NCBI GenBank assembly: GCA_050250255.1
Contig: JBFWOZ010000009.1
Span: 1-64,000 of the forward strand
Origin: Bdellovibrionales bacterium
GTDB taxonomy: Bacteria; Bdellovibrionota; Bdellovibrionia; Bdellovibrionales; DASUEL01
Length of the DNA stretch: 64,000 bases
Reading direction: 5' to 3'
The notes beneath the pieces are model-generated. The model was given only the letters and a program-made list of their open reading frames with translations. It did not search any database and was not told where the DNA came from. Made by a program: the position numbers and the translations under genes. This document shows positions 1 through 40,008 of this stretch, in pieces. Numbering within the stretch: position 1 is the first letter of the stretch; the number at the start of each line of letters is the position of its first letter.

Positions 1-3000
1 TCCGATCTTAAGAACGTCACGACGAAGAAGATCACTTCGAAGAGGACGAAGTCCTAAGAGCTTCACGATGGATTTTAATGCCTTCTTTACACTCTTGGCA
101 CCAGAGTCAGTCAAAGTTGTAGATGCTCTCGCAACGTAGTCTTCTTGAGCCTCAACAAAAGCATTCGTATATTCATGCGCGATGGCGAGAATACGCCGTA
201 ATTCAATTTGAGCCGGGATATCATTTCTCGCGAGCTCTATAGGGCGCTCCCAAATATCTGCTCCAGAGAAAACTTCGTTACAAATGTGAGGCATTAATTT
301 TTCGCTACTTGGAGTCGTAACGCGCTTTGCGATGCTGTCACAGACATCTTTCTTGCTAAGATTTTTACCAAGAATCTCACTCAAGGCTGCATTCGAAAGA
401 AAGATCTCCGAATCAAACTCTAAAGATCCCATGTCATAATTGGTGTCTTCGTTTTTAAATTTTGTCAGCATGGTGGGCATAAAAGAAAAGTGTTTTTCTT
501 TTAACTTAAAGAAGTCTGAGCTCGTCGCCCAAAGAGTATTGTAATCAACAATAAATCTCGCATGAATTTGTCCGTTGCTATCGGCGATGGCCTCACTCGT
601 TGTCTGATGACCCTTCGTGTACTTTCTAGTAAAAAAGGAAAACCCAGAACGGCCATTTGTCTTTTTAATGGAGAGGAAGCGCTCTCGTACTGCTTTTGTT
701 TCTGGATCTACAAAAGCCATCGTCTGGACATTGCTAAAACTTAGGAAGGACGGAATACCCAAAACAGAGAACTGATAAGATTTTGAATTGTTAGTATAGG
801 CGACTTCGTTGACGGCAAGAGGAAGTAGTTCTTTGGATAAAGCCTCTTCTTTCTTATCTTGAGGAGCTGCGCGCTTTAGGTTCTTCATCAGCATTTCACG
901 CTGCTCGGGTATACTCACATTGAAACGGTAGAGCTGATCGGTTCCTGAAAGATCAGTTAAGCGCGCTTTAGCGCTCAGAAGACTTAATATACTTGCCCTG
1001 ATCGCAGCGCTGCCTCCTAAATCCTCTTTTGTGACGTCGGACCAATTTGCGAGATAATTTTGTGCTTCTTCACGGATTAAAGTGAGTCGGTGGAAAGTTA
1101 ACGTGTTGAGACCTGCCTTTAAACTCAGATTAAGAAGAGGAATGCCTGTCGGAAGGTAATTCGCTCCACCGGTGGCCCCGGCTCCAATGTAAGAAGAAGA
1201 GATGAAGACATCGCCCGGTTGCATATTGGCTGCCATTTTTTCAGACAAGTCTTTAATGGATCGATAGTAATTTTTAGGATCTAAATAGACTTCTTCTAAC
1301 CCTTTAATAAATTCTTCAGGTCCTGCAACAGCGCGAACACGGATGAATTCCCATGTTTTGCTAGATTTGAACTTCCACTTCAATTGAAGAGATTTTGGTT
1401 CCACCTCTACGATTTCGTCAGCATTAAATCCTTCTCCGCTCAGACGTGTGATCACATCTGGAGTGACTCGTGCATCAAAACCGGTTCGGAAAACATCAAT
1501 GATCCAATAAGGTTTGTCGTTGAGGAGTTTTCCTTTGTTAAATGGGTTTTCAATAATGTAACGAGCTGGAATGAAAGAGTCTTGCCCTGCAGGAAAACCA
1601 CTTAAAAGAAGGTTTGTTGGCAGTTCAATGCGCTGAAGCTTTTTAATAAAAGGCTCGGCGAGCTTAGGGATTCCCGCATAATAAAGAGCATTATGAAGAG
1701 CTTCTTCGGTAGTACCCGCTTCAGGAGAATGGATAGAACCGGTTTGCGCCCATTTTGCATCGCACTTTCCTTCTTTGGCGATGTATTTTCCTTTATCGAA
1801 ACAATCTTCGTAACCAGAAACCGTAAACTTTGCGGGCTCTGTCATTTTACTCTCAAGTTGGATCGTACGACTCTCACCTGTGCCGTAGGCCTTCACAGTC
1901 GTACCGAGGAGACCTGTGCTTTGTACTAGCTGATCACGGCGACGAAGAAGAAGTTGAGTGTAAAACTCTGCGATAGGTGCTGGATAATCCAAGTGAAGAA
2001 AAAGCGGATAAATCTGATCATAGGTGAGCTGAGAGATAAGACGAGCCGCCCAACGAACATCATTAATTGTTACGGCTTCCCAAAGTTTGCTCTTAGAATA
2101 GTGAGTTAAATTAAGTGTGAGATGAGGAACGTTGACGCGAAATTGCGGCACGGTGGAAGTCCTATTAGGAACTACGAGCTCTGAAGGAAATAGGTTTGGA
2201 CGATTTTTAATCGTTATATCTCCCAATGAAGCTCCCATATCTGAAGCAACATGAGCCAAGTGATAACCACCCGAACCGTCTTCCTTCGGAATAAGCTTGA
2301 GTTCCGCATTGGCATATTTAGCGTCAACATCATTGATCCATGCGTAAAAAACCATGAGACCACGAAACTCACGACGCAAATGATGACCAAGATTTTCTTT
2401 AGAAAAACCGCCAATATCAAAGTCATGCCTCATGTCTTTTCGAGCTTCGAGACTGACTTCGTTCATTTCTACGTATTTACGACCCTTTTCTGGGCCATCT
2501 TGAATCTCCATAATGTTGGAGAAAGCGGAGCCGTAATCCCAACTACTCAAACCACCAGATCTCTTAGGACCCTTTTGGATAAGCTCATTAATGATCGCGT
2601 TTCTTGCGATATTAAAACGTGCGGCATAGACTTTGCGACCTTCTTCGGTCGATATTTCATTAGCATTAAATCCATCCTTTACGAAGAGACGTACTTTCTG
2701 CTTGTAGAATGTGGGATCGACTGAAAAACCAATGGCAGCGGCGAGCTGATTGACGACATTTTCGCTTTGGATTTCATTGCCGGACTGACGGTAGTAATCC
2801 AGCGCTTGTAAAGCTTTTCCGGCTTTAGAAGGGTGGGGAATTTTGGTTTGGAATTTAAGTTTGTAAGTACGGCCTTGAAAAAGCACATCGATTTTCGGAG
2901 TTGTTCCGCTATTTTTTGCACCTTTATACTCTATGTCCACTGAGGCTTTGGAATTGAGAAGCTCTTCTGGTAGTTGCGGTTGCGCCATTCCTGAGTACCT

Positions 3001-3786
3001 AAGTGTGTCGTATTTATGAATTGGAACTTGCGGGGCTCTCCATAGTCCAGAGTTCTGAGGATCACGAGCGGAAAGATCTGCCGTTCCGGTAAGAAGAAGG
3101 TTTGAGGCTTCAACCTGGCTTTTAATAACAATATAATTAAGGGCATTATCAACAGCTTCGTAAACACCGCTTAAATGAGCAAAGGTGTTATCATTGTTCC
3201 TGAGAGACGAAAGAATTTCTAAACCATTAAAGAGAGATTCATAGAACTGCTGAGCCTGGGGACTATTTAAAGCCTCTAAAGTTTTTAACGGAGGTAGTGA
3301 TTTTGAGAGCTCAAGAGCGCGACGAAGTTCTTTTTCTGCGAAAACTCGAGCGACGCTTAATTCGTCAGCATCAAAATCTTTTAGAAAATCTTGTGTCCGC
3401 TGATCTCTTTTTGAGCGAAAAACATCTAGGCTGTCGTTGCAATAAGCATCACCCATGAATGGTTTATTTTTTTCGCAGTAAACAGCAAAAGCCGCATTTT
3501 CATCGCGACGAGAGTGTTGTAAATCAGCAAAAATTGCTGACTCTAAAATGCGATGAGTTTTAGGATCAATGTAGGTTTCATGAAGTAGGGCGGATGGTGT
3601 GCGCCTTTCAACTTTATTTTTAGCCCTCGAGGCAAGGACGGAAACGCCCTGATAGATGGGAGACGTTTTATCGTTTGTAATAAAGCCCGGAAGATTTCGT
3701 ACACCGTCGTAGCGACCGAGAGTTCCTGCCTGAATTTGAAGAGTAAAAAAAAGAGAAAGAGTCGAAATGACGAAGTGTTGTCCCAC
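1..3786 (-). CDS. Large secreted protein with atypical (HipA/PI3-4K-like) kinase-fold N-terminal domain; 3' end outside the window
   Basis: Missing from the ORF track, apparently because no stop lies in the window. GTG at 3786 preceded by GAGG; signal-like MGQHFVISTLSLFFTLQIQA. Hand-translated stretches are open, including the last codons at position 1. Motifs SGTTPK..YKLKF, EIQSE, WINDVDAKYAN, SDMGASLG, DVRWAAR..LLLRRRDQL. Confidence 0.8.
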   Translation of the reverse strand, partial: MGQHFVISTLSLFFTLQIQAGTLGRYDGVRNLPGFITNDKTSPIYQGVSVLASRAKNKVERRTPSALLHETYIDPKTHRILESAIFADLQHSRRDENAAFAVYCEKNKPFMGDAYCNDSLDVFRSKRDQRTQDFLKDFDADELSVARVFAEKELRRALELSKSLPPLKTLEALNSPQAQQFYESLFNGLEILSSLRNNDNTFAHLSGVYEAVDNALNYIVIKSQVEASNLLLTGTADLSARDPQNSGLWRAPQVPIHKYDTLRYSGMAQPQLPEELLNSKASVDIEYKGAKNSGTTPKIDVLFQGRTYKLKFQTKIPHPSKAGKALQALDYYRQSGNEIQSENVVNQLAAAIGFSVDPTFYKQKVRLFVKDGFNANEISTEEGRKVYAARFNIARNAIINELIQKGPKRSGGLSSWDYGSAFSNIMEIQDGPEKGRKYVEMNEVSLEARKDMRHDFDIGGFSKENLGHHLRREFRGLMVFYAWINDVDAKYANAELKLIPKEDGSGGYHLAHVASDMGASLGDITIKNRPNLFPSELVVPNRTSTVPQFRVNVPHLTLNLTHYSKSKLWEAVTINDVRWAARLISQLTYDQIYPLFLHLDYPAPIAEFYTQLLLRRRDQLVQSTGLLGTTVKAYGTGESRTIQLESKMTEPAKFTVSGYEDCFDKGKYIAKEGKCDAKWAQTGSIHSPEAGTTEEALHNALYYAGIPKLAEPFIKKLQRIELPTNLLLSGFPAGQDSFIPARYIIENPFNKGKLLNDKPYWIIDVFRTGFDARVTPDVITRLSGEGFNADEIVEVEPKSLQLKWKFKSSKTWEFIRVRAVAGPEEFIKGLEEVYLDPKNYYRSIKDLSEKMAANMQPGDVFISSSYIGAGATGGANYLPTGIPLLNLSLKAGLNTLTFHRLTLIREEAQNYLANWSDVTKEDLGGSAAIRASILSLLSAKARLTDLSGTDQLYRFNVSIPEQREMLMKNLKRAAPQDKKEEALSKELLPLAVNEVAYTNNSKSYQFSVLGIPSFLSFSNVQTMAFVDPETKAVRERFLSIKKTNGRSGFSFFTRKYTKGHQTTSEAIADSNGQIHARFIVDYNTLWATSSDFFKLKEKHFSFMPTMLTKFKNEDTNYDMGSLEFDSEIFLSNAALSEILGKNLSKKDVCDSIAKRVTTPSSEKLMPHICNEVFSGADIWERPIELARNDIPAQIELRRILAIAHEYTNAFVEAQEDYVARASTTLTDSGAKSVKKALKSIVKLLGLRPLRSDLLRRDVLKIG

Positions 3787-3904
3787 TAGTACCTCTTGTT
3801 TAAGGATGGTCTTAAGAAGTATGTACAAGCTGTTGGCGCCATGCGCAATATGCGAATAAATGGTGTTCTACATTGAAGATCGCTTAAAAAAAAGTCGCGA
3901 CTGA

Positions 3905-5206
3905 CTAAGTGTTAAACAGAATTTTTTGTGCGAGTTTTTCCGATGCGCCGGTCTTTTCTAAAACTTTGTTTTTAAGGTGATGTTGAACAGACGCCAAATC
4001 CACTTTAATTAGGGTTTGAATATTTTTTGCTAATTCTTCACTGTTTTGGACAACAATGACTGCTGGTGAAATGTTTTGAATTAAAAGCTTTTGAAAAATG
4101 AGAGCTTCACGATTATTTCGATGTTTTGGTCCCACGAAAGTAATGCACCCAGCAGCCAACGGTTCCATTACGCTATGAATTTTATCTCGAAGAAAGGAAT
4201 TACCTACGAGAGCGAGTTGGGCCCAACTATACAGATCCGCAAGGATTCCCACTTGATTGATAATTAAAACCGAAGGTTCTAGATACCAATCCGACTTGGC
4301 CTCGGTGTAAAGATGCGTTTTGATAGAAAGATCTTGAAATAGCTTTTTAAGTTGCGCGAGGTGATCTGGAGTAGGTTCGTGAGGCGCGATAATAAAACGG
4401 ATGGGGAGTCCTTGAAGTTTTTGAAGCGTTTCTTTGAGCACTTCCTCATCTGGTAACCAAGTCGATCCAGCTAAAAATGTGACATATTTTTTTGGCGGGT
4501 GAAGCTCAGAGCGAAGCGCTCTCGGCTGCGCTAACCGGCGTAATACTTGATCATACCTTGTATCCCCAAAAACTTGAGTTCGGTCGCGAAGAGCTAGGCT
4601 TTCAAAAGTTTTTTTGTCTTCATCGTCGACGCAATAAATTTCGTCTACAAGTTGGAAACGCCATTTGGCATAGGATCGCTTCAATGGATTTTTAAATTTT
4701 GGAGCAGTTTCCGAAAGCGTTGCTGAAAAAAGGATCGTTTTTACCGAATACTTTTTTGCTTGAAGCAAAAGTTCGGGCCAAAGATCGGTGCGGGCGACTA
4801 GTAACATTCGAGGTTTTAGATGTCGAAACAGGGGGGCTAGAAAAAATGGATGATCAAAAGGAAGGGGAAAGTACCCATCGATTAGTGGATCATTAGCTAG
4901 CACTTTTTTTACACTCGGAGAGAAAAAACTCACCACAATTTTCAACTCTGGCGCATGAGATTTGAGAGAGGCTATAAGGGGTTTAGCGTATTCAAATTCT
5001 CCAGAAGAAACATGAATCCATAAGGCGTTCTTTAATGTGATTGTTTGCCATGGATAAAGCCCATTTTGTTTTTTTCGTAAATCAAGTCCTCGTTGTAATT
5101 TATCGTGAAAGGGCGCGACCACGTAGAGAAACAAAAGGGTGATTGGGAAAAAGACCCAGCGGTAAAAAATCCAATGAAACAGTAAATGAACGTACGACAA
5201 AATCAC
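3905..5206 (-). CDS. waaA: 3-deoxy-D-manno-octulosonic acid (Kdo) transferase
   Basis: WIHVSSGEF, YFPLPFD, DLWPELL, GDTRYD, AGSTW, APHEP, HSVMEP motifs of GT30. Confidence 0.9.
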   Translation of the reverse strand: MILSYVHLLFHWIFYRWVFFPITLLFLYVVAPFHDKLQRGLDLRKKQNGLYPWQTITLKNALWIHVSSGEFEYAKPLIASLKSHAPELKIVVSFFSPSVKKVLANDPLIDGYFPLPFDHPFFLAPLFRHLKPRMLLVARTDLWPELLLQAKKYSVKTILFSATLSETAPKFKNPLKRSYAKWRFQLVDEIYCVDDEDKKTFESLALRDRTQVFGDTRYDQVLRRLAQPRALRSELHPPKKYVTFLAGSTWLPDEEVLKETLQKLQGLPIRFIIAPHEPTPDHLAQLKKLFQDLSIKTHLYTEAKSDWYLEPSVLIINQVGILADLYSWAQLALVGNSFLRDKIHSVMEPLAAGCITFVGPKHRNNREALIFQKLLIQNISPAVIVVQNSEELAKNIQTLIKVDLASVQHHLKNKVLEKTGASEKLAQKILFNT

Positions 5207-29128: not shown

Positions 29129-32050
29129 TTATTGAAGATCTAATTCTACGATTTTATCGTTACAAATAAAAACGGCCTGTGCGGGTGTCGTATCTGTTGC
29201 TCGTCGGAAGTTCTGCTCCTTACATCCATTTGAAACATAGATACGACTTTGCGCAGGTTTCACGAGTCCATTTTCGCCAGCCACTATAACCTCAACGGCA
29301 CCGTTGAGGTTATAGCTTGGTGCATAGGCAGCAAGTTTACCATCCACTTCGAGAGGAAAAAAGAATCCCTCATAGAGAAGTGAAGGAAGAAAACTAAAAC
29401 GGTTCGCGCTTAGCGCGTAGGTTTTTCCGGTGATTAGGTTTTTGTAAACCAGATCGTACTGTGAAAGAGCAAACACTTCTTTTTGCTGAGTTTCATACTT
29501 CGCACCAATAATTTTAAGCAAAGAATCCAACTTATTAATGGGGCTAAGCACAAAATCTTCAGATAATATGTCTGAGTTACGCGTATGAATGAAAGTGATT
29601 TTTTGCTGCCCAGGAAGAGCTGGGCCCGCAAAAGACTTTACGGATGGATTTTGAGTAAATAAATCTGGAGCCGTTAAACCTTCTAATAGACGGAACTGAC
29701 TTAGACCAATTTTGACTTCGTTTTTCTTACCTTCAATTAAATCCGTAATCTTTTGAGTGACATAATAAAAATTTTCAAAGCTACTGCCTTTTAAATACAA
29801 CACCAGATCATCAAAGGTTGTAAGCGCTAGTGTGTCCTTAGGATCTGGAATAACTCTTAATCCTTCTTCAGCAAGATAATAAATATGAAAAGTTCGTTTC
29901 TTATCAGGGTTTGGATCACGTGGCGTAGGCCTAGGCATATCTAAAGGAGGAATTTCTCCCATACCTTTAAAGAAAATACGTTCAAAACCTTTAAGAAGAA
30001 CCCATGAATATTGATCGGGGAGTGCCGTAATCTTTTGATCCAAGAGAACGTAGGATTTATCGCCAAATGCGACAAGTGGTTTTAAGAAACGATCACGGTA
30101 ATGAATTTCAGTACCGTTAAACGAATCGGTTCCACCACTACTTACAGTAAAGAAAAACACGAGATCCGCAATACCATCTCGGTTTAAATCTCTTTGCTCT
30201 ACCTTAATTAGAGTGCTTTCAAAATCACCCTCTTTAACTGATTCGCCAACGCCCAAAGTTTCTTCCGTCACGACACGGTAGACGTTCATATCTCGGCGGA
30301 GCAATCGATAAGACCATTTTCTATTTTCTAATTTCTTTACTAGAAGAAAATCTGTTGATCCGTCGATAGAACGATACTCTTCACCTTCCTGAAGCGACAC
30401 GCCTTGGATTTGGAAAACGCTGACACCTTTTTGTTCTGGCTGTAAAAGAGCCAAAGTTGGGACCATGATTTGCAATTGAAGTTTATAAGTCGAGATCACT
30501 TTCCCGTCAGATAACACGTCTAATTTTAATTGATCTTCGCCGCTTTGTGACTCATTTACTGGGTATCTGAAGAGAATTGTTTTTTGAACACCCTTTGGCC
30601 AAAGATCAATTTTCTCTGTTGAAACCTGCAGTTCCGTACCATCGCTCGTTCGTGACGCGCGGAAAGAAATATTTTTTCCGTCAAGCCATAGATTTTTTAA
30701 AAGAACCTGACCCATAACGAAAGGATTTTTACGATCCCAGAGGAGACGAATATCTTCCTGTTTCACAGGATAAATGAGAGCTTGTGGTGTTAGTTGAAAA
30801 CTTTTTTCCATGTCCAGATTACCAGACAACAGAGTTTTATTTTGCCATGTTTGGAACTGAGAAGCTCTTGGCTCACGAGCACCCAAAATAAGTCGCGCGA
30901 AGGCCTCTTGCGGCGAAATCTCTTGAGAGAGCATCATTGCGAGAGCTCCTGCTACAAACGGAGCAGCCATACTCGTACCGTTTTTATATTCATAACCGTA
31001 GCGGATATAATATTTTTTAGGTCTAATCGTAGTAGGGTAAGTGCTTAAAATACTAAAACCTGGTGCCGCAATATCCGCGAGGCTACCAAAATTTGAAAAA
31101 TGGCTAACAGCTCCATCAGGTCCATAAGAAGCGACGCAAATCACTTGAGCGTAAGCACATGGAAGAATTGGCTGATTCGCCGAATCGTTTCCAGCTGCGG
31201 AAACAATCATCACTCCATTTTTTTGAGCATAATCAAGGATCTCACGAATTGTTTTTTGGTTAGGGTCAATAATCGCAGGCCAGCCGATAGAGATGTTAAT
31301 GACCTTTGCGCCAGATCGAATGGCGTAAACAATCCCACGAGAAATAGCTGTGACAAAACCTCTTTGCTTTGAAAGCTCCGAGTCCAATGGTAATCCATCA
31401 CTCGTTTGTTCAAGAGTGCCCATGGGGCCCGTGGGAGTTTGACCCGAACCAATCACTTTTACAGGAAGAATCTTAACAAATCCCGTAGCAAGACCTTTAG
31501 TCACACCACCGGCACCAGATGCAGAAATAATCCCGGCGATGTGAGTGCCGTGACCCGCTTGATCTTGAACGTTAAAACTACCACGAGTTCCATCACCTTC
31601 TTTTGCTGTAAAATTAAATCCATTACAATCAAGAGGGTAACCATTCTTATCAGTGTCAACTACACCCGTTGTTTTTTCACATTGGATGATCTTTGGTTTA
31701 TCTAATTTTGCCTCTTTTAAACAAGCAAGATGAGCTTTTAACGCCTCACACTCAGTAGGTTTAGTGGCGATGTAAGGAGCCAATTCTGGATGATCTACTT
31801 GCACACCCGTATCGACAACAGCAACAATAATTTCCTTCTTTGGAGTGGCCGGAAGATTTCGTAAACGAAGATCTTCGCCCACCACCGCCGGGAATTCAAT
31901 GGTTTTTAAATCTTCTAAATCCACAGGTACAGAAGCACCTTGATTATTGAAGTACCACAGAGAGTCAGGTCCATTTGCATTTACGATGCTGATTCCACTT
32001 AGAATCACAATTAGGGAGGCCAGGAGAATTTTGATTTTTACATGTTTCAT
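29129..32050 (-). CDS. Secreted subtilisin-like S8 protease with long C-terminal extension
   Basis: VAVVDTG, GHGTHIAG, AAGND, GTSMAAP; signal peptide. Confidence 0.92.
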   Translation of the reverse strand: MKHVKIKILLASLIVILSGISIVNANGPDSLWYFNNQGASVPVDLEDLKTIEFPAVVGEDLRLRNLPATPKKEIIVAVVDTGVQVDHPELAPYIATKPTECEALKAHLACLKEAKLDKPKIIQCEKTTGVVDTDKNGYPLDCNGFNFTAKEGDGTRGSFNVQDQAGHGTHIAGIISASGAGGVTKGLATGFVKILPVKVIGSGQTPTGPMGTLEQTSDGLPLDSELSKQRGFVTAISRGIVYAIRSGAKVINISIGWPAIIDPNQKTIREILDYAQKNGVMIVSAAGNDSANQPILPCAYAQVICVASYGPDGAVSHFSNFGSLADIAAPGFSILSTYPTTIRPKKYYIRYGYEYKNGTSMAAPFVAGALAMMLSQEISPQEAFARLILGAREPRASQFQTWQNKTLLSGNLDMEKSFQLTPQALIYPVKQEDIRLLWDRKNPFVMGQVLLKNLWLDGKNISFRASRTSDGTELQVSTEKIDLWPKGVQKTILFRYPVNESQSGEDQLKLDVLSDGKVISTYKLQLQIMVPTLALLQPEQKGVSVFQIQGVSLQEGEEYRSIDGSTDFLLVKKLENRKWSYRLLRRDMNVYRVVTEETLGVGESVKEGDFESTLIKVEQRDLNRDGIADLVFFFTVSSGGTDSFNGTEIHYRDRFLKPLVAFGDKSYVLLDQKITALPDQYSWVLLKGFERIFFKGMGEIPPLDMPRPTPRDPNPDKKRTFHIYYLAEEGLRVIPDPKDTLALTTFDDLVLYLKGSSFENFYYVTQKITDLIEGKKNEVKIGLSQFRLLEGLTAPDLFTQNPSVKSFAGPALPGQQKITFIHTRNSDILSEDFVLSPINKLDSLLKIIGAKYETQQKEVFALSQYDLVYKNLITGKTYALSANRFSFLPSLLYEGFFFPLEVDGKLAAYAPSYNLNGAVEVIVAGENGLVKPAQSRIYVSNGCKEQNFRRATDTTPAQAVFICNDKIVELDLQ

Positions 32051-32059
32051 AATTACTCC

Positions 32060-35000
32060 TTAAAATCCATCGCCTAAATAACGACCAAATAACTCGTAAG
32101 CGAGAATTTTATATTTTTTGACAAATTGTCCAAAGATCCCTTGTTCCAGTTCCGTGCTGTAGGTTCCTAAAGAATCAGAGAAGTACTCTTGTCCGCCTTC
32201 TAAATTCATGCGCTCATCATTTTTTCTAAAACCATTCACTCGAACCTGAAAGAAATAATTCTCATAACCTAAAATTTTTAGCACTTCGTAGAGTGGAAGC
32301 TGGCCTTGCAAAAGATCAACGATTTGATTTTGGATCTTAATAATATCTTTTTTCTCCACAGGAGGCGCATTCCTAAACTCAAGGAGTCTCTGCATCCAAG
32401 GGAGAAGGCAAGGGTACTGCTGTTCAGCATTGATACTCGCCAAAAAACTTCTGTAGGCTGGATTCGCTAACGTGAATACCTTTGCGTTCTTACATTGCGT
32501 TTCATAAGCATGTCGACCGCCGATTTCAATCAACCGAGACACGACTTGCGCCTCTTGTCCTCTTTGACCCGCCTTTAAAAACTCTCTGCGAATTTTTTCC
32601 AAGCCCGACGGATAAACAACTAACTGAGACTTGATTTCATAAAGCTGAAAATCCGTTACTTCGTTAAAAACTTCTTTTCTCATGAAAGGATGCCCAAGGT
32701 TGAGGCCCGATACACTTCTTTCAATAGAATCAATAATTTTATAAAAGTCTTTTTTCTTTAAGTTCCAACCGGTCCAGTAGTTTTCGCTAATGGTGACGGG
32801 GTGAAAACTTTGACCGTCTGTCACTTCCGCTTCTGTAGAAATCGTCGACCACTTGGCTTTACCTGCAACAGATGTAAGATTATTTCCACCGACTCCTCCT
32901 GGCCCAAACCCTGGGGCCGCAGCATTCACGATGTCGGAGAGAAGAGAGTAATAATTAACACCGCTTCGGCGTACTTTTCTGACAGAGAAAAGATGCGCAT
33001 CGTATTTTTCTTCTGTGACGTTTTCTTGTTCGCTTTTAGGTGCTCCATCTAAGGGACGAAATTTTAAAGAAACCGTATGTGCTTCATCGAGAGTATCTTT
33101 CTTTAAAAAGAGAAAGGAGAAACGACTCGACCTTGAAGAGTAATCGTGACCTAATCGGTAGGGAAGGTAGTTACTCTCTAAAAGTTCTGGGCTATTTCCG
33201 CGAATAAGACCTCTTAACGCTAAACCAATTTTCACATTTCGCTTGTAACCTTCAGAATCGAATTTTCCTGTTGGTTTTTCATCCCCTTCTTTAAAGTCGA
33301 TGATGTAGGCACGAGTTTTAGCCACTGCTTTTTTCGGACTGCTTGCGAAGTTTATAATATCAATCCAGAATGAAAGACCAAAATCATGGCTTACGGCACC
33401 AGAAGCAGCGTCTGTAAGATAGATGTGAAAACCGTCGGCCGTACGAGTGATATAGGTCTTTCGAAGCATAATGAGGTTTCCAGATACCCCATAACGAGCT
33501 ACAAATTCTTGTCCGAGCATGACTGGGATACCCAAAATAGCTGAGATGGGAATTGCAGCCGAGGCTCCGGCACCACCGCCGATAGAGTCAGTAACTATGA
33601 AAGTTTCTCCCACTTTCATAGCTTTCGCGAAAGCATCAAAAGACTTTTCGTATTCTTCATCTTTTAAGTCCGCTTTAATCAAATCGCCAAGCCCCAACAT
33701 AAAATTCAAAACATGAATGTCGTCGCGCGGTTCATTTTCCACCGCAGCTAAACTCGGAAGCGCTCGAACGTGAGCGAAGTCCCGCCGATAAAATACGTTC
33801 GCTGAAGCGGTAGGGAGAACATTTTCTTGAGATGTGTTTGTTAAAAAATAACCAAGAGACGCCTGGACAGCTAAAGAGTCGACGAGTTGAATCTTTGAAT
33901 CCACACCATAATAAGTTCCAGAAGAAACGGAACGACCAGCTTGGATGCTTGCACCCGCCAGCATCCCGCCCCAGGTATCTAACGGAAAACTGCCTGGAGC
34001 TTCAGGATTTTCGATGTAGCGTTGAATGAACTCTTCAATATCTTTACCCCGACCAGCCGTGATGTCTTCGATCGTTTTCGCCGGAAATTTCTTTGTAATC
34101 GCCTCGAGAACTTTTGAAAGCCCAATACCTTGAGCCTCAAGTCTCATAAATTTCGCAATTTCACCAAGACGAATAGGCGACTCTACATCACCAAAGGTAA
34201 AACGCACGCTGATTCCAGGATAAAATTCTTGGGTCGCTTTACCATTCACTACTTTACCGACGTTCACTTGTGTTTCAAATGGCATTTGCGGAAACTCTGC
34301 TCCAAGTCCTGCTAAATGAATGAGATGGTTACGTCTTGAAATAAGTTTTTCAAGAAAAAGAGCGGCAATATCTGATGGATAGGCACCAGCCGTTACGATT
34401 TCTTCAAAATCTTTGCGAGTGAGTTTTGCAATTTTTCGAGCGACCCAACGAATGTCTTGGTAATCCGTATCTGTAAATTCATTGGCGAATACCTGGTTCA
34501 TGACAAGAAGGTTATTCACGACCTTACCCATTTCCCAACCAAACATATTCACGTTTTCTGGCATATCCGCCAAAACAAAGAGAGTAATCAAAGCTCGTGT
34601 AGAGCGCTTGCTACCTACGAAACTTTTCTGCGCAACGCCCCAATGAAATTGCGGAACGGTGAGATCAGCAGGCTCCAAGATGACATCTTGCAAAGTAACT
34701 TCTGAGTTTTCAGTATTTTTGCGATCGGTCTCAGGAATCCAGCGTAGACCGTCACTGAGTGTATCTGCAGAAAGTTTGTTAATGAACCGTTGGCGACATT
34801 CTTCTTTCGTTGTGCCACAGAAATTCTTTTCTAATTTTACCTTAAGAAGCGGGTAGTGTTTAATTGCGCTTGTGTTGTAGCCCACTTTTCTCATGAGAGC
34901 ACTGCGCACTAAAGCGCCATGTCCCTGAGGGCTTACCCAAAGGATGAAGTTTCGTCCCTGACTATCGATGACCGTCATGCGCGAAACGCTCAGAAGGTCT

Positions 35001-35323
35001 CCGACCTTCACCGCACCTAAACTAGAATCGTACTCGACCTCAGATTTTTCTGGAAAAGATATTGCGACACGCTTAGGGTCTGTTGGCCAAAGGTTGTTAG
35101 GCTCAGGATCGAGTTGGCTAAGATCTACTTTGTTTTTTAAAAGTTCTGCTGCTTGATCTGAATCAATCGTTTTTCCTTGGTACTGAAGATCATTAGCGGG
35201 GCGCTTTGCGCGGTTGACGGGGATTGCGACCGAAGCAGCAAACACCCAATTTGGCAACGCAAGGATTAAAAACACTCCTGCAAGAAAACGAGTCAAAAAT
35301 TTATTCGTCGAATTCTTCGCCAT
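32060..35323 (-). CDS. Large secreted protein, catalytically degenerate paralogue of the 1..3786 kinase-fold protein
   Basis: Signal peptide; DLSQLDP..LW, DIRWVAR..YP..LISRRNHL and MKVGETFI..IGGGAG blocks match the 1..3786 ORF. Confidence 0.8.
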   Translation of the reverse strand: MAKNSTNKFLTRFLAGVFLILALPNWVFAASVAIPVNRAKRPANDLQYQGKTIDSDQAAELLKNKVDLSQLDPEPNNLWPTDPKRVAISFPEKSEVEYDSSLGAVKVGDLLSVSRMTVIDSQGRNFILWVSPQGHGALVRSALMRKVGYNTSAIKHYPLLKVKLEKNFCGTTKEECRQRFINKLSADTLSDGLRWIPETDRKNTENSEVTLQDVILEPADLTVPQFHWGVAQKSFVGSKRSTRALITLFVLADMPENVNMFGWEMGKVVNNLLVMNQVFANEFTDTDYQDIRWVARKIAKLTRKDFEEIVTAGAYPSDIAALFLEKLISRRNHLIHLAGLGAEFPQMPFETQVNVGKVVNGKATQEFYPGISVRFTFGDVESPIRLGEIAKFMRLEAQGIGLSKVLEAITKKFPAKTIEDITAGRGKDIEEFIQRYIENPEAPGSFPLDTWGGMLAGASIQAGRSVSSGTYYGVDSKIQLVDSLAVQASLGYFLTNTSQENVLPTASANVFYRRDFAHVRALPSLAAVENEPRDDIHVLNFMLGLGDLIKADLKDEEYEKSFDAFAKAMKVGETFIVTDSIGGGAGASAAIPISAILGIPVMLGQEFVARYGVSGNLIMLRKTYITRTADGFHIYLTDAASGAVSHDFGLSFWIDIINFASSPKKAVAKTRAYIIDFKEGDEKPTGKFDSEGYKRNVKIGLALRGLIRGNSPELLESNYLPYRLGHDYSSRSSRFSFLFLKKDTLDEAHTVSLKFRPLDGAPKSEQENVTEEKYDAHLFSVRKVRRSGVNYYSLLSDIVNAAAPGFGPGGVGGNNLTSVAGKAKWSTISTEAEVTDGQSFHPVTISENYWTGWNLKKKDFYKIIDSIERSVSGLNLGHPFMRKEVFNEVTDFQLYEIKSQLVVYPSGLEKIRREFLKAGQRGQEAQVVSRLIEIGGRHAYETQCKNAKVFTLANPAYRSFLASINAEQQYPCLLPWMQRLLEFRNAPPVEKKDIIKIQNQIVDLLQGQLPLYEVLKILGYENYFFQVRVNGFRKNDERMNLEGGQEYFSDSLGTYSTELEQGIFGQFVKKYKILAYELFGRYLGDGF

Positions 35324-35452
35324 TCAAACTCCATCGAAAAAGTCTCAATTAAAGGGGGAACATACCATACACTGTAAAAGGGGAGCGAGGTACGATCTGG
35401 TGATTGTATTTTCGATCTGTCGAGGGAGTAGACAAAATTTGAGGCACGTCTG

Positions 35453-35484
35453 AAAAAAAGAAAAGGCCTCTAGAAGAGACCTTT
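35453..35484 (-). terminator. Rho-independent terminator after lipoprotein A
   Basis: Minus strand aaaggtctc-ttcta-gaggccttt followed by a U tract. Confidence 0.75.
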
Positions 35485-35510
35485 CAAAAGTGTTTAATAT
35501 TTAAACAATA

Positions 35511-36530
35511 TTAGTTCATAAGGCTGCCGTAAAAGAAGCCGAGAACTTCTCTCATTGTCTCTGGACTTGTTCTCCAGTTTTGAGCAGCTTCACCAACAAG
35601 GGAATCCATCTCCTTCAAAGCAAGCTCCGTCTTTCCATCACGAGCCATGAGGGCTACGTCTTCAATACGACCGAGCTCAATTCCATAAACACGCTTAGAA
35701 AAAGCAGCCATGTCAGCATGCGTACGAGCGCGCTTAGAACCGATCTCTGACCAATCAACGAGTGAAGCAGCAGCTTGTTCGCTGACATCTGCATCTAAAG
35801 AGAACTTTGCCTGAAGAACTTCAGAGATACCCTTTACTTGATCGGCACGTTGTTCAGCAATTGTGCCCATGACATCTTGACCTTGTTGTCCACCCGTAGC
35901 GCGAGCAAGGTTTAGTGCTGTTCCATTATAACCATATTCAACGCCAGAAGGGCTACGCATGAACATATCATTAAGCGTATTTACATTTCCTGGCTGCGTT
36001 GTTCTCCATCCGAAATTCCACCCACCTAATTGATTCTCGTAAAACGTTTTTGAAAGATGCCAATCTCTAACATTAATTTCTCGTCCATCTGGCGTTTTCA
36101 CATAATGTTCGTAATTCGTAAATGTTTCGATGTATTCATGAACACGTTCCACAAAACCACCCTCACAAACGCTTTGCACAACTCTCGCGCAAGGATCCCA
36201 TTCATTTTGGATCTCAGTCTTTAATCTTGTGTCCTGAAAGGTTTTAAAACTAAAAGAAAAACCATTTAATTTAGAATAATGAGGATCTGTTTGAAGGTTG
36301 ATTTTAGAACCGTCGTATTTAAAGTTACAACCCGGTCGAGGTTCACCCTCGCTACAGATCTGCGCCATAGAGTTAAACCAAGCATTTTTATTCACATCGG
36401 GATTGTTACGAAGCACATCAAATGGATCTACTTTTGGAGCTGAACCGCCACCGCTGCCTCCTCCTCCGTTACAAGCTGACATTATTAATGCCAAGACGAA
36501 AACTAAAGTGCAATTAAAAACAAACTTCAT
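35511..36530 (-). CDS. Tandem variable lipoprotein, copy A
   Basis: Lipobox MSAC, poly-Gly tether, CSEGEPRPGC, invariant C-terminal block. Confidence 0.9.
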   Translation of the reverse strand: MKFVFNCTLVFVLALIMSACNGGGGSGGGSAPKVDPFDVLRNNPDVNKNAWFNSMAQICSEGEPRPGCNFKYDGSKINLQTDPHYSKLNGFSFSFKTFQDTRLKTEIQNEWDPCARVVQSVCEGGFVERVHEYIETFTNYEHYVKTPDGREINVRDWHLSKTFYENQLGGWNFGWRTTQPGNVNTLNDMFMRSPSGVEYGYNGTALNLARATGGQQGQDVMGTIAEQRADQVKGISEVLQAKFSLDADVSEQAAASLVDWSEIGSKRARTHADMAAFSKRVYGIELGRIEDVALMARDGKTELALKEMDSLVGEAAQNWRTSPETMREVLGFFYGSLMN

Positions 36531-36559
36531 TTATTACCCCCTAAAACAAGGTCTATGAG

Positions 36560-36576
36560 TTGCCCTACCTATGCCA
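36560..36576 (-). promoter_or_regulatory. Putative sigma54 (-24/-12) promoter of copy A
   Basis: TGGCATAGGTAGGGCAA, GG-N10-GC spacing. Confidence 0.55.
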
Positions 36577-36679
36577 CTGGATACTACTTAATGAGAAGGA
36601 AAATCGTCGGTCCACCGTACGGTTCTGTGTACAGGTGACGTACACATCTGCGCGAACAAAGCTAAGAAAGAGTAAAGGT

Positions 36680-36708
36680 TGATCACAAGCAATATACGCT
36701 TGTGATCA
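36680..36708. promoter_or_regulatory. 11-7-11 palindrome (candidate operator/UAS, or terminator of copy B)
   Basis: tgatcacaagc-aatatac-gcttgtgatca; same geometry as 47469-47497. Confidence 0.55.
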
Positions 36709-36735
36709 GAAGATTTTGCAATGCTAAATAATTTT

Positions 36736-37689
36736 TTATTGGGCCAGATTGCCGTAGAAGTAGTTTAGAACTTCTCTCATGGTCTCAGGACTTGTTCTCC
36801 AGTTTTGAGCAGCCTCACCAACAAGGGAGTCCATTTCTTTTAAAGCAAGTTCTGTTTTTCCGTCACGAGCAAGAAGAGCCACATCTTCTATGCGACCGAG
36901 CTCAATTCCATAAACACGCTTAGAAAAAGCAGCCATGTCGGCGTGCGTACGGGCGCGCTTAGAACCAATTTCAGACCAATCCACTAAAGAAGCGGCCGCT
37001 TGTTCACTGACATCTGCATCTAAAGAAAACTTCGCTTGAAGGACTTCAGAGATGCCTTTCACTTGATCGGCACGAACCTCAGCAATTGTACCCATGACGT
37101 CTTGACCTTGCTGACCACCGGCTGTGCGAGCTGCATTGATCGCAACACCGTCATAACCGTACTTCATACCAGATGGGCTTGTGATAGTTACATCACTCAC
37201 ATCAAAATGTACGCCGGTTGTTCTCCCAGCAAAAATCCAGCCGCCCAACTCTTTAGCGAAGTTTTGTTGTTGGTATCGAGTCCAATCTGCCATTGTATAA
37301 CGACCACCGCCAGGAATATGAACGAAGTAACGATAGTTTGTATAGGTTTCGCTGGTGTCTGTACAGTAACCATCGAAATCACAGCTTTCATTCCAACGTG
37401 TGGCTGTGTAAGGTTCGCGTTCAATTAAAAATCCACCATTGAGCCGGTCAATGAAAGGGTCTTCGCCTTTTGTAACCTTTGAACCATCATATTTAAAATT
37501 ACAACCTGGACGAGGTTCACCTTCGCTACAGATTTGTGCCATGGAGTTATACCAAGCATTTTTATTTACATCGGGACTATTACGGATCGTCGAAAAATAG
37601 TCTGGCGTTGAGCCTCCGCCACCACCATTACAAGCGGTCATTGCAAAAGCTGTTGCCGTCATTAAACTTATTCTTAGAAGTGTTTTCAT
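36736..37689 (-). CDS. Tandem variable lipoprotein, copy B
   Basis: Lipobox MTAC, GAGG RBS, same architecture as copy A. Confidence 0.9.
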   Translation of the reverse strand: MKTLLRISLMTATAFAMTACNGGGGGSTPDYFSTIRNSPDVNKNAWYNSMAQICSEGEPRPGCNFKYDGSKVTKGEDPFIDRLNGGFLIEREPYTATRWNESCDFDGYCTDTSETYTNYRYFVHIPGGGRYTMADWTRYQQQNFAKELGGWIFAGRTTGVHFDVSDVTITSPSGMKYGYDGVAINAARTAGGQQGQDVMGTIAEVRADQVKGISEVLQAKFSLDADVSEQAAASLVDWSEIGSKRARTHADMAAFSKRVYGIELGRIEDVALLARDGKTELALKEMDSLVGEAAQNWRTSPETMREVLNYFYGNLAQ

Positions 37690-37709
37690 ATTTCCTCTTT
37701 GTTTTAGGC

Positions 37710-37737
37710 AAAAAAAGAGCCTCTAAAAGAGGCTCTT
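37710..37737 (-). terminator. Rho-independent terminator between copies C and B
   Basis: aagagcctc-tttta-gaggctctt followed by a U tract on the minus strand. Confidence 0.8.
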
Positions 37738-37746
37738 GGTGTTTCG

Positions 37747-38763
37747 TTATTGCATTACGTTTCCATAAAAGAAGTTTAAAACTTCTCTCATCGTCTCTGG
37801 ACTTGTTCTCCAGTTTTGAGCGGCTTCACCAACGAGGGAATCCATCTCTTTAAGAGCGAGTTCCATCTTTCCATCACGAGCCATGAGAGCTACGTCTTCA
37901 ATACGTCCTAATTCAATTCCATAAACACGCTTAGAAAACGCGGCCATATCGGCGTGCGTACGAGCGCGCTTAGAACCAATCTCTGACCAATCAACGAGTG
38001 AAGCAGCCGCTTGTTCGCTCACATCTGCATCTAAAGAGAACTTCGCTTGCAGAACTTCAGAGATACCTTTTACTTGGTCTGCACGCTGTTCAGCGATAGA
38101 ACCCATGACGTCTTTACCTGTTGTTCCACCTGCTACTTGAGCGGCGTTTAAAGCATTTCCTGCGTAAGAGTACTTCACGCCAGTAGGGCTGAGGATTGCG
38201 ATATCATTGATATCTCCACTTGAACGATGTTCGAACGACCATCCATTCAATTTATCAGCATAAAAGCGAGAGTTAAGACCCCAATCTTTTACATTATAAA
38301 TACGATTGTCAGGAGTGTTCACATAAACCATGTAGTTTGTGAAAGTTTCTACATCTGTGTAATACTCTGTATCGTAGCCACCTACACAGTAACCATCCCA
38401 ATCAACATAATCACAGGAATCCCAAACTTGTCGAGAACGTTGAACCGTTTTTGAATCTGTATAAGCAACACGCGAGAATGTGAAACCATCTAACTTAGAA
38501 TAGTGTGGATCTGCCTGTAGAGTGATTCTTGAACCATCATAACGGAAGTTACAACCTGGACGAGGTTCACCTTCGCTACAGATTTGCGCCATAGAGTTAA
38601 ACCATGCGTTTTTATTCACATCTGGATTGTTACGAAGTGCATCGAATGGATCCACTTTTGGAGGTGTACTTCCTCCGCCACCGCCGCCTTCACAAGCGAC
38701 TGCGAGCATTGCTAGAGCAACGAACGAACTGACTCTTAAAACTTTTGAAAAACCGGACTTCAT
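37747..38763 (-). CDS. Tandem variable lipoprotein, copy C
   Basis: Lipobox AVAC, same architecture as copy A. Confidence 0.9.
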   Translation of the reverse strand: MKSGFSKVLRVSSFVALAMLAVACEGGGGGGSTPPKVDPFDALRNNPDVNKNAWFNSMAQICSEGEPRPGCNFRYDGSRITLQADPHYSKLDGFTFSRVAYTDSKTVQRSRQVWDSCDYVDWDGYCVGGYDTEYYTDVETFTNYMVYVNTPDNRIYNVKDWGLNSRFYADKLNGWSFEHRSSGDINDIAILSPTGVKYSYAGNALNAAQVAGGTTGKDVMGSIAEQRADQVKGISEVLQAKFSLDADVSEQAAASLVDWSEIGSKRARTHADMAAFSKRVYGIELGRIEDVALMARDGKMELALKEMDSLVGEAAQNWRTSPETMREVLNFFYGNVMQ

Positions 38764-38809
38764 TTCATTCCCCCTTATAGGATTTATTTTTAGTTCCGTA
38801 GGCCCCTAG

Positions 38810-38825
38810 AGCAACCTACGTGCCA
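38810..38825 (-). promoter_or_regulatory. Sigma54 (-24/-12) promoter of copy C
   Basis: TGGCACGTAGGTTGCT matches the consensus TGGCACG-N4-TTGCW. Confidence 0.8.
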
Positions 38826-38951
38826 TATCACTTTTTTTGTTTACTTGTTTAATGTGAGTTAAAGCTTTCTTTTCGGTGACAATTAGATACCAGAGCTCTA
38901 ACGCATCGCTCTATGTCACCAGTTACAAAAGCTTGATCAGACTCACTAGCT

Positions 38952-38986
38952 AAAAAAAAAGCCTGAGAATTTCTCAGGCTTTTTTT
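38952..38986. terminator. Bidirectional intrinsic terminator after copy D
   Basis: A9-gcctgagaa-t-ttctcaggc-T7. Confidence 0.85.
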
Positions 38987-39006
38987 GTAAGTTGTGTTTA
39001 CTATTT

Positions 39007-40008
39007 TTACTTCGCAAGATTCCCGTAAAAGAAGTTTAGAACTTCTCTCATGGTCTCAGGACTTGTTCTCCAGTTTTGAGCAGCTTCACCAACAAGTGAA
39101 TCCATCTCTTTCAAAGCAAGCTCTGTTTTTCCATCACGAGCAAGAAGAGCGACGTCTTCGATACGTCCTAATTCAATTCCATAAACACGCTTAGAAAAAG
39201 CAGCCATGTCAGCATGCGTACGAGCGCGCTTAGAACCGATCTCTGACCAATCAACGAGTGAAGCAGCAGCTTGTTCGCTGACATCTGCATCTAAAGAGAA
39301 CTTTGCCTGAAGAACTTCAGAGATACCCTTTACTTGATCGGCACGTTGTTCAGCAACCGTGCCCATGACGTCTTTACCATTAGTGCTACCAACCGCTTGA
39401 GCTGCGTTGAGAGCAGAACCGTCGTAGGCATACTTCACGCCAGATGGGCTCAAAATAGTAATATCGTTCACATCAGTGAACGATCCCGCCAAACGATGTT
39501 GGAAACTCCAGCCGTTGAGTGAGTAGCTTCCGCTCACAAGACCCCAGTCCTTTACGTTGAATTGTCTTCCGTCTGGAGTGTTCACAAACACATTATAATT
39601 CGTGAAGGTTTCTGTGTAAGCATATTCACGTCTCACGTAACCAGCCTGGCAAACGCCGTCTATGTCACGATATGCACAATGATCCCATTCTTCAGTTTCG
39701 CCAACACGGTAACGCTTATCGGTGAATGACGAACGTACGAATGTAAAGCCATTCAAAGTTGTATAAGCAGGATCTTCACCTAAAGAGATTTTTGATCCGT
39801 CATATTTAAAGTTACAGCCAGGACGCGCTGGTTCACCTTCGCTACACATCTGCGCCATAGAATTGTAAAATGCAGTTTTGTTTGCATCTGGATTATTTCG
39901 GAGAGCTGCAAAATAATCAGGAGTGGAACTACCGCCACCACCGCCGTTACAAGCTGTCATCACAAACGCTAACATGAGAAACAAAGAACAATTAAAAACA
40001 GATTTCAT
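39007..40008 (-). CDS. Tandem variable lipoprotein, copy D
   Basis: Lipobox MTAC, same architecture as copy A. Confidence 0.9.
   Translation of the reverse strand: MKSVFNCSLFLMLAFVMTACNGGGGGSSTPDYFAALRNNPDANKTAFYNSMAQMCSEGEPARPGCNFKYDGSKISLGEDPAYTTLNGFTFVRSSFTDKRYRVGETEEWDHCAYRDIDGVCQAGYVRREYAYTETFTNYNVFVNTPDGRQFNVKDWGLVSGSYSLNGWSFQHRLAGSFTDVNDITILSPSGVKYAYDGSALNAAQAVGSTNGKDVMGTVAEQRADQVKGISEVLQAKFSLDADVSEQAAASLVDWSEIGSKRARTHADMAAFSKRVYGIELGRIEDVALLARDGKTELALKEMDSLVGEAAQNWRTSPETMREVLNFFYGNLAK

Follow-up and report, generated by a model that had tools for sequence, protein, structure and literature searches.

What an exported kinase would act on, and in which compartment, is the question raised by the first gene of the 64,000-nucleotide (nt) stretch analysed here (the window: positions 1 to 64,000 of contig JBFWOZ010000009.1, here C9, of the Bdellovibrionales bacterium assembly GCA_050250255.1). 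The gene lies on the minus strand, and the original prediction, made from the letters of the window, described its product as a large secreted protein with an intact atypical kinase site and argued that an exported kinase needs ATP and so may act inside prey or host cells, with the C-terminal half as a delivery or anchor domain. The gene is real and intact, and the barrel-like domain in its C-terminal half is uncatalogued, matching no Pfam, NCBIfam or PDB sequence. The reading preferred here, in which we place about even confidence, is that of a kinase anchored in the outer membrane and working on the cell's own envelope or on export cargo.

The reading frame is stop-free from a GTG at 3786 to window base 1 (1,262 codons), where contig C9 of the 3.09 Mb, 95-contig assembly starts. 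The start of another contig, C40, overlaps this end by 126 nt, as the reverse complement of window 9-134; C40 keeps the frame open for 129 codons from residue 1219 and reaches a stop at C40:390-392, giving an intact gene of 1,347 amino acids (aa) whose C40-encoded tail aligns to the C-termini of relatives. The junction is bridged with zero differences by a 20,213-nt contig from sequencing run X1, covering window 9-4200 and C40 1-1500, and by a 554-nt contig from run X2; both runs belong to one study, and X1 is possibly the source of this very DNA. The contig extension called for by the original prediction thus completes the gene, no frameshift or stop splits the frame, and a split-gene reading was rejected on the strength of the two bridging contigs. 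A TTG at 3828 was rejected as an alternative start since the GTG has a ribosome-binding site. The coordinates of all features are collected in Table 1.

All six kinase motifs named in the original prediction lie where it placed them, and its two coordinates (2340-2308 and 2244-2233) were exact. A homolog search with the kinase region returned 383 representatives at E ≤ 0.001, the best 150 of which were listed, and 123 relatives were aligned, short and fragmentary hits having been left out. K311 is conserved in 118 of these, E338 in 114, D488 in 117, N493 in 116 and D516 in 117, and position 490 is K in 83 and R in 25; the catalytic roles of the five residues were assigned by motif order. Word-index homolog searches were insensitive (6, 6 and 1 hits). 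Neither the protein and its profiles nor the barrel-only relatives had a significant match in Pfam, NCBIfam, PADLOC or the PDB sequences, and hits to transthyretin (E 0.3) and DUF3935 (E 0.04-0.2) were rejected as chance.

For residues 21-660, the model (predicted local distance difference test, pLDDT, 92.5; predicted template modelling score, pTM, 0.93) predicts a bilobed atypical kinase of the clade that holds CtkA, PI4K-II, Fam20, CotH and HipA; the bilobed fold and the conserved catalytic Lys, Glu, Asp and Asn and metal-binding Asp are those of the protein kinase-like superfamily. Compared by VIA with 48,161 chains, the top match was CtkA of Helicobacter pylori (PDB 3akj; Z 12.6, root-mean-square deviation (rmsd) 3.9, 213 aligned), and the others included PI4KII-alpha (11.8), Fam20 (11.5), CotH (10.4), actin-fragmin kinase (10.2), MavQ (10.1), HipT (9.7) and HipA (9.6), with a kinase or a HipA/HipT toxin named in 12 of the 13 top rows. 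Foldseek, proposed as a check by the original prediction, returned the same set of kinase folds. With the motifs in place, the catalytic residues conserved and a kinase fold modelled, the prediction of an intact atypical kinase site is well founded, and its HipA/PI3-4K-like motif order translates into a HipA/PI4K-like fold supported by alignment, VIA and Foldseek alike.

The neighbours of this fold span protein, glycan and lipid substrates, and because the matches are near ties a substrate class is not readable from them. The domain resembles CtkA, PI4K type II-alpha, Fam20, actin-fragmin kinase and MavQ in its fold (Z 10-12.6 over 213-271 residues, 11-16% identity) and shares with the CtkA/PI4K-II/Fam20 group the catalytic Lys, Glu, Asp, Asn and Asp, but it differs from that group in its DxDxKxxN catalytic loop, signal peptide, helical N-terminal domain and C-terminal barrel and in having no Pfam or PDB sequence match. 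HipA and HipT toxins are alike in fold (Z 8.0-9.7), and HipA_2 is among the nearest named Atlas clusters (0.84, a lead only), whereas the query has a signal peptide, a Kdo transferase and an SH3 protein in place of an antitoxin-like neighbour, and no Pfam or PADLOC match. The SEAE1 bacterial kinases share with it a PIK-like fold, an intact core and an unassigned substrate, and are set apart by their description as non-secreted and mostly of Bacteroidota, with no barrel mentioned in that account (10.64898/2026.09.18.752743).

The protein is likely exported by Sec, judging from its N-terminus. A signal-like N-terminus is found by hydropathy scan in 88 of 98 relatives of at least 1,000 aa (a set that includes the query twice and four paralog-type hits), and further along the query the same scan found no transmembrane helix (best 19-residue window 1.30), so that by hydropathy the query combines a Sec signal with the lack of an inner-membrane helix, as outer-membrane proteins do. 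The N-terminal domain gave generic helical-bundle matches alone (VIA Z ≤ 8.2). Cys104 is kept in 49 and Cys116 in 47 of 57 relatives, and Cys1149 and Cys1169 are both kept in 51 of 59; these two conserved pairs would fit disulfides formed outside the cytoplasm. The export assumed by the original prediction is therefore supported by the long relatives and the cysteine pairs together.

The C-terminal half, which had been described as partly beta/Gly-rich, is instead modelled as a folded beta-barrel-like domain. The model of residues 606-1262 (pLDDT 85.2; pTM 0.78) consists of antiparallel strands with helical insertions, and a barrel-like sheet of at least 13 strands is predicted, the antiparallel barrel-like fold of outer-membrane barrels. 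Candidate strands at residues 1271-1279 and 1289-1295, encoded on C40 beyond the modelled part, and a short strand at 726-728 could raise the number to 14-16. All 50 VIA matches listed for this half are membrane barrels, with CymA the best (Z 13.7, rmsd 7.6, 255 aligned), further matches to OmpG (Z 11.2), a polysaccharide secretin (4y25; 10.9), PopA (10.4), FhaC (10.2) and TamA (9.9-10.1), and 185 residues of BpsOmp38 aligned at rmsd 3.3. The query shares a curved antiparallel sheet (Z 9.8-13.7) and amphipathic strands with CymA, OmpG, 4y25, PopA, FhaC, TamA and PelB, and differs from them in its low identity (4-8%), high rmsd, longer strands, helical insertions and helical C-terminus. In 136 sequences scored for a 9-residue alternating hydrophobic face against 1,000 shuffles, strands 2, 4, 5, 6 and 13 alternate over a membrane-spanning length (reached by 0-34 shuffles per 1,000) and strands 12, 1 and 3 alternate more weakly (67-119). 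A barrel-like fold is thus predicted, and a closed barrel in the outer membrane may be inferred; of the delivery or anchor function proposed for this half the anchor part stands, now as a membrane-barrel fold.

The strand face opposite the hydrophobic one carries many conserved Gly and small residues, a feature of pore lumens. Which way the hydrophobic side faces was read from the sequence rather than from model coordinates, which leaves room for a soluble lipid-handling enzyme, in which the sheet, its hydrophobic face on the inside, would form a lipid-binding cup feeding a PI4K-like lipid kinase. The lipid kinases PI4KII-alpha and MavQ tie among the best kinase matches, and the genes upstream are lipopolysaccharide (LPS)-core transferases, as this arrangement would suggest. 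We nevertheless consider it very improbable, given the pore-lumen-like opposite face, the fact that membrane barrels make up the whole of the 50 matches listed, with zero soluble lipid carriers, and the LPS neighbours, which are not common to the relatives.

The order of parts, signal, enzyme, helix and barrel, recalls an autotransporter, and matches to the autotransporter barrels NalP, EspP, Hbp and EstA (Z 7.5-9.7) and the existence of exported kinase-only forms fit such an arrangement: with the barrel in the producer's outer membrane and helix 693-718 running through its pore, the kinase would work outside on ATP from prey leakage or the surroundings. A classical type Va autotransporter has a 12-strand PF03797 barrel, whereas the query has at least 13 strands, no PF03797 or other Pfam match, large disulfide-bearing helical insertions and a helical C-terminus, and its barrel-only relatives have no passenger; a surface kinase of this kind appears quite unlikely. 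Omp85/TpsB proteins are alike in fold (Z ~10), but the query has no Pfam or NCBIfam match to POTRA or to the Omp85 barrel, and where other export barrels carry POTRA or TPR domains this family has a kinase or a dead kinase.

Four architectures were found among the relatives, grouped with a quick tree of 58 rows whose length filter dropped some dead-kinase and short proteins. The intact kinase with the barrel forms the query's clade of 12 rows (support 100) and other clades; the dead kinase with the barrel makes up 16 rows (support 100), none of which has the five catalytic residues in the alignment; the barrel alone occurs in 7 proteins (L058-L064; 605-801 aa) with a signal-like start, no library match and no other enzyme domain seen on them; and the kinase alone spans 310-730 aa. 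Of 98 long kinase relatives, 90 match the barrel profile, and so do, unevenly, 61 of 151 genomes of the phylum (12/15 and 26/29 in two families; 0/28, 0/10 and 0/10 in three others). Relatives with a named taxonomy belong to Bdellovibrionales, Bacteriovoracaceae and Oligoflexales, plus one record labelled Myxococcota. Atlas look-alikes of each half taken separately fall in unnamed clusters, mostly of Acidobacteriota where the phylum is known (0.95 and 0.92), and serve as leads only. One kinase-barrel sub-clade (L027, L070, L072) has Arg at the beta3 Lys and Gln at the catalytic Asn, through variant chemistry or partial decay, and one relative (L057:5977-9955) is spread over three open reading frames (ORFs), frameshifted or mis-assembled.

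A dead-kinase paralog lies in the same window, within a minus-strand operon (29129-40008) of four paralogous GGGG-lipoproteins (35511-40008), the dead-kinase barrel (32060-35323) and a 973-aa subtilase (29129-32050). At dead-kinase loci a subtilase lies within 5 kb in 17 of 17 cases and GGGG-lipoproteins in 13 of 17, and by barrel match all 9 of the 9 genomes sampled from a genus with closed chromosomes have the operon. The dead-kinase barrel, subtilase and GGGG-lipoproteins are a candidate for a dedicated export system.

Among 24 intact-kinase loci, VTC lies within 5 kb in 6, one of these having been fetched via its VTC hit and the flanks being shorter than 5 kb at several loci. In a scan of 16 selected proteins, a CotH kinase fills the same slot at 4 of 14 VTC loci. 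CotH kinases (PF08757) are exported atypical kinases like the query (Z 10.4), and the query's relatives share their VTC and DUF4956 context; unlike the true CotH genes at VTC loci, which match PF08757 and carry a beta-helix or no extra Pfam domain, the query has no PF08757 match at E ≤ 1 and has its own barrel. A trio of secreted CotH-like kinase, VTC and four-transmembrane/ACT protein is reported from the pel operon of Streptococcus intermedius (10.1101/2024.04.20.589940). In the query's own genome, VTC and a DUF4956-like gene lie elsewhere, split across the ends of contigs C11 and C30 (L065:1-1395 and L066:6589-6930). At six other loci (L078, L079, L081, L084, L054, L073), with or without the kinase-barrel, a conserved operon runs DUF4956, HlyD-like adaptor with a DUF3616/phytase-like domain, outer-membrane efflux-like protein and VTC, and looks like a polyphosphate-linked export module. 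At three more (L047:427-8086, L011, L090), a 528-555-aa kinase of the family lies in an operon with UbiA prenyltransferases, CYTH, MMPL and DUF4956, which suggests a lipid-linked pathway.

In the preferred reading, Sec would likely export the protein and the predicted barrel would likely anchor it in the bacterium's own outer membrane, where the predicted kinase would transfer phosphate to a substrate in the envelope or to export cargo that the barrel holds. The kinase would somewhat more probably be on the periplasmic side than displayed on the surface. POTRA or TPR domains handle substrate in other export barrels, and the kinase may have this role here. The phosphate donor would be envelope ATP or, in some relatives, the product of the adjoining VTC/DUF4956 pair. 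A self-directed role is favoured because a dead kinase is kept beside the subtilase and GGGG-lipoproteins, because no other enzyme domain was seen on the barrel in the 7 barrel-only proteins and because of the VTC/CotH-slot context. The step from a need for ATP to action inside prey or host cells is not forced, since periplasmic ATP has been reported in Escherichia coli at about 24 µM (PMC7432876) and CotH-type kinases work outside the cytoplasm; the dead-kinase operon, the intact relatives found in the CotH gene slot and, as leads, the Acidobacteriota look-alikes also speak against it.

Several points weigh against this assignment. The barrel matches have high rmsd (3.3-11 Å), and Foldseek on the C-terminal half, the second check proposed by the original prediction, gave one weak hit (E ≤ 0.001, TM-score 0.15). 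The barrel model stops before the last 88 residues, so that a closed barrel goes beyond it, and coevolution (135 sequences, effective number Meff 125, 428 columns; shallow) recovered R742-D764, W761-I817 and R818-D859, was otherwise mostly noise and gave no closure signal. Strands 7-11 do no better than chance in the alternation test (reached by 214-724 shuffles per 1,000) and strands 9-10 are polar, so that the hydrophobic belt seems to have gaps; at its C-terminus the chain shows a hydrophobic helix pattern with K as last residue and no terminal strand or beta-signal, and a C-terminal F or W occurs in just 20 of 100 long relatives. The gene stands alone, in a neighbourhood not common to the loci of its relatives, no VTC or DUF4956 adjoins it, and VTC is nearby in 1 of 11 tested loci of its own clade. 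Of 18 genomes that match the intact kinase strongly, 12 have VTC, against 14 of the 133 others, a difference confounded by kinship. The family is, moreover, concentrated in a phylum of predators.

Several of these points would suit a prey-directed effector, in which the amphipathic hairpin tips of strands 1-8 would enter the prey membrane, possibly forming an oligomeric pore, and bring the kinase to the ATP and targets of the prey. The alternating hydrophobic pattern peaks at one end of strands 1-8 and fades on 9-10, there is no terminal beta-signal, the stand-alone gene is patchily distributed, and the related folds include the toxins or effectors CtkA, MavQ, HipA and HipT. The subtilase beside the dead-kinase form also recalls protease-activated pore formers. 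The Bdellovibrio barrel PopA, for its part, is reported to enter the prey inner membrane (PMC12228718). A dead catalytic domain kept over dozens of genomes, or a lack of swapped cargo, would be surprising in a toxin but not in the substrate-handling domain of a barrel; the dead kinase is conserved on the same barrel in many genomes, and swapped toxin cargo was not seen. None of 32 barrel sequences matches the gasdermin, MACPF or CsgG family profiles, and these folds are absent among the 50 VIA matches listed, a list that barrels fill and that says little for or against a pore fold; a gasdermin-containing Foldseek entry at E 0.08 was not counted. The VTC/DUF4956 context of the relatives and the look-alikes in Acidobacteriota clusters also weigh against an effector, and predation by this organism is an assumption, so that we regard an effector as unlikely.

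An extension of the preferred reading, which we hold to be rather doubtful, is that the protein is the first member of an undescribed class of outer-membrane translocon in Bdellovibrionota, in which the uncatalogued barrel carries a kinase fold as its periplasmic cargo domain. Active forms would phosphorylate cargo crossing the outer membrane, some of them fed by the VTC/DUF4956 polyphosphate module, and the dead-kinase form, which most sampled genomes of the predator families have, would export the subtilase and GGGG lipoproteins of its operon. To our knowledge, the export routes of the proteases with which predators attack prey are poorly known.

Table 1. Features of the kinase-barrel gene and its paralog (window coordinates; res, residues).
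Feature	Position	Strand	Basis
Assembly tip, outside the gene	1..8	.	X1 and X2 contigs diverge from the window at base 9 and go on as C40
Kinase-barrel gene, res 1-1259 of 1,347; last 88 res and stop on C40 (locus L001, stop 390-392)	9..3786	-	ORF, junction contigs
Ribosome-binding site AAGAGG, 5 nt upstream of the GTG start	3792..3797	-	sequence
Predicted Sec signal peptide, res 1-20, likely cleaved after IQA	3727..3786	-	hydrophobic window 2.24; relatives align from the mature start; judged by hydropathy
N-terminal helical domain, res 21-225, Cys104/Cys116 pair	3112..3726	-	model m87e436bbfd40
Atypical kinase domain (predicted), res ~262-632: GxxPK loop, K311, E338, D488-x-K490-x-x-N493, S-D516-M-G	1891..3003	-	alignment, model, fold matches
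Gly-loop-like SGTTPK, res 293-298	2910-2893	-	translation
YKLKF (beta3 Lys), res 308-312	2865-2851	-	translation
EIQSENVVNQLAAAIGF (alphaC Glu), res 338-354	2775-2725	-	translation
WINDVDAKYAN (catalytic loop), res 483-493	2340-2308	-	translation
SDMG (DFG-equivalent), res 515-518	2244-2233	-	translation
LLLRRRDQL helix, res 612-620	1953-1927	-	translation
Linker helix, res 693-718, before strand 1	1633..1710	-	secondary structure of model m1739b99966dd, pLDDT 48-68
Predicted beta-barrel, 13 strands of 13-23 residues, res 731-1130	397..1596	-	model, fold matches, strand alternation
Helical insertion, res 1132-1259, Cys1149/Cys1169 pair	9..393	-	model
Paralog: dead kinase (pseudokinase) and same barrel, 1,087 aa, between GGGG-lipoprotein genes and subtilase gene	32060..35323	-	homology, alignment, tree

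The kinase-barrel gene is flanked by LPS-core transferase genes upstream, the Kdo transferase gene adjoining, and by an SH3-domain gene; between the Kdo-transferase gene and the kinase-barrel gene no promoter or terminator pattern was found. The same genome carries three stand-alone, signal-bearing kinase-like genes of the same superfamily (L002:738-1868, L067:4147-5469 and L068:2191-3528; 376-445 aa, no Pfam match), the last with a metallophosphoesterase next downstream, and a further degenerate kinase match at C1:28320-29077.

The literature search turned up neither a kinase-barrel fusion nor an account of this family; the kinase domain itself may already be listed in supplementary kinase tables outside that search, such as those of KINtaro. 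A kinase-like segment is present in some Bacteroidota phosphoesterase-Omp85 proteins, which would be an earlier example of a kinase joined to a barrel, with a barrel of another family. The fusion points to what is likely an undescribed route of phosphorylation at the cell envelope. Two families would be new, one of exported atypical kinases and one of outer-membrane barrels, joined in one chain, and, since relatives alternate with CotH next to VTC/DUF4956, they would offer a handle on the question of the phosphate donor of extracytoplasmic kinases. With the dead-kinase operon present in a genus with closed chromosomes, knockouts and structures would be feasible in cultured predators.

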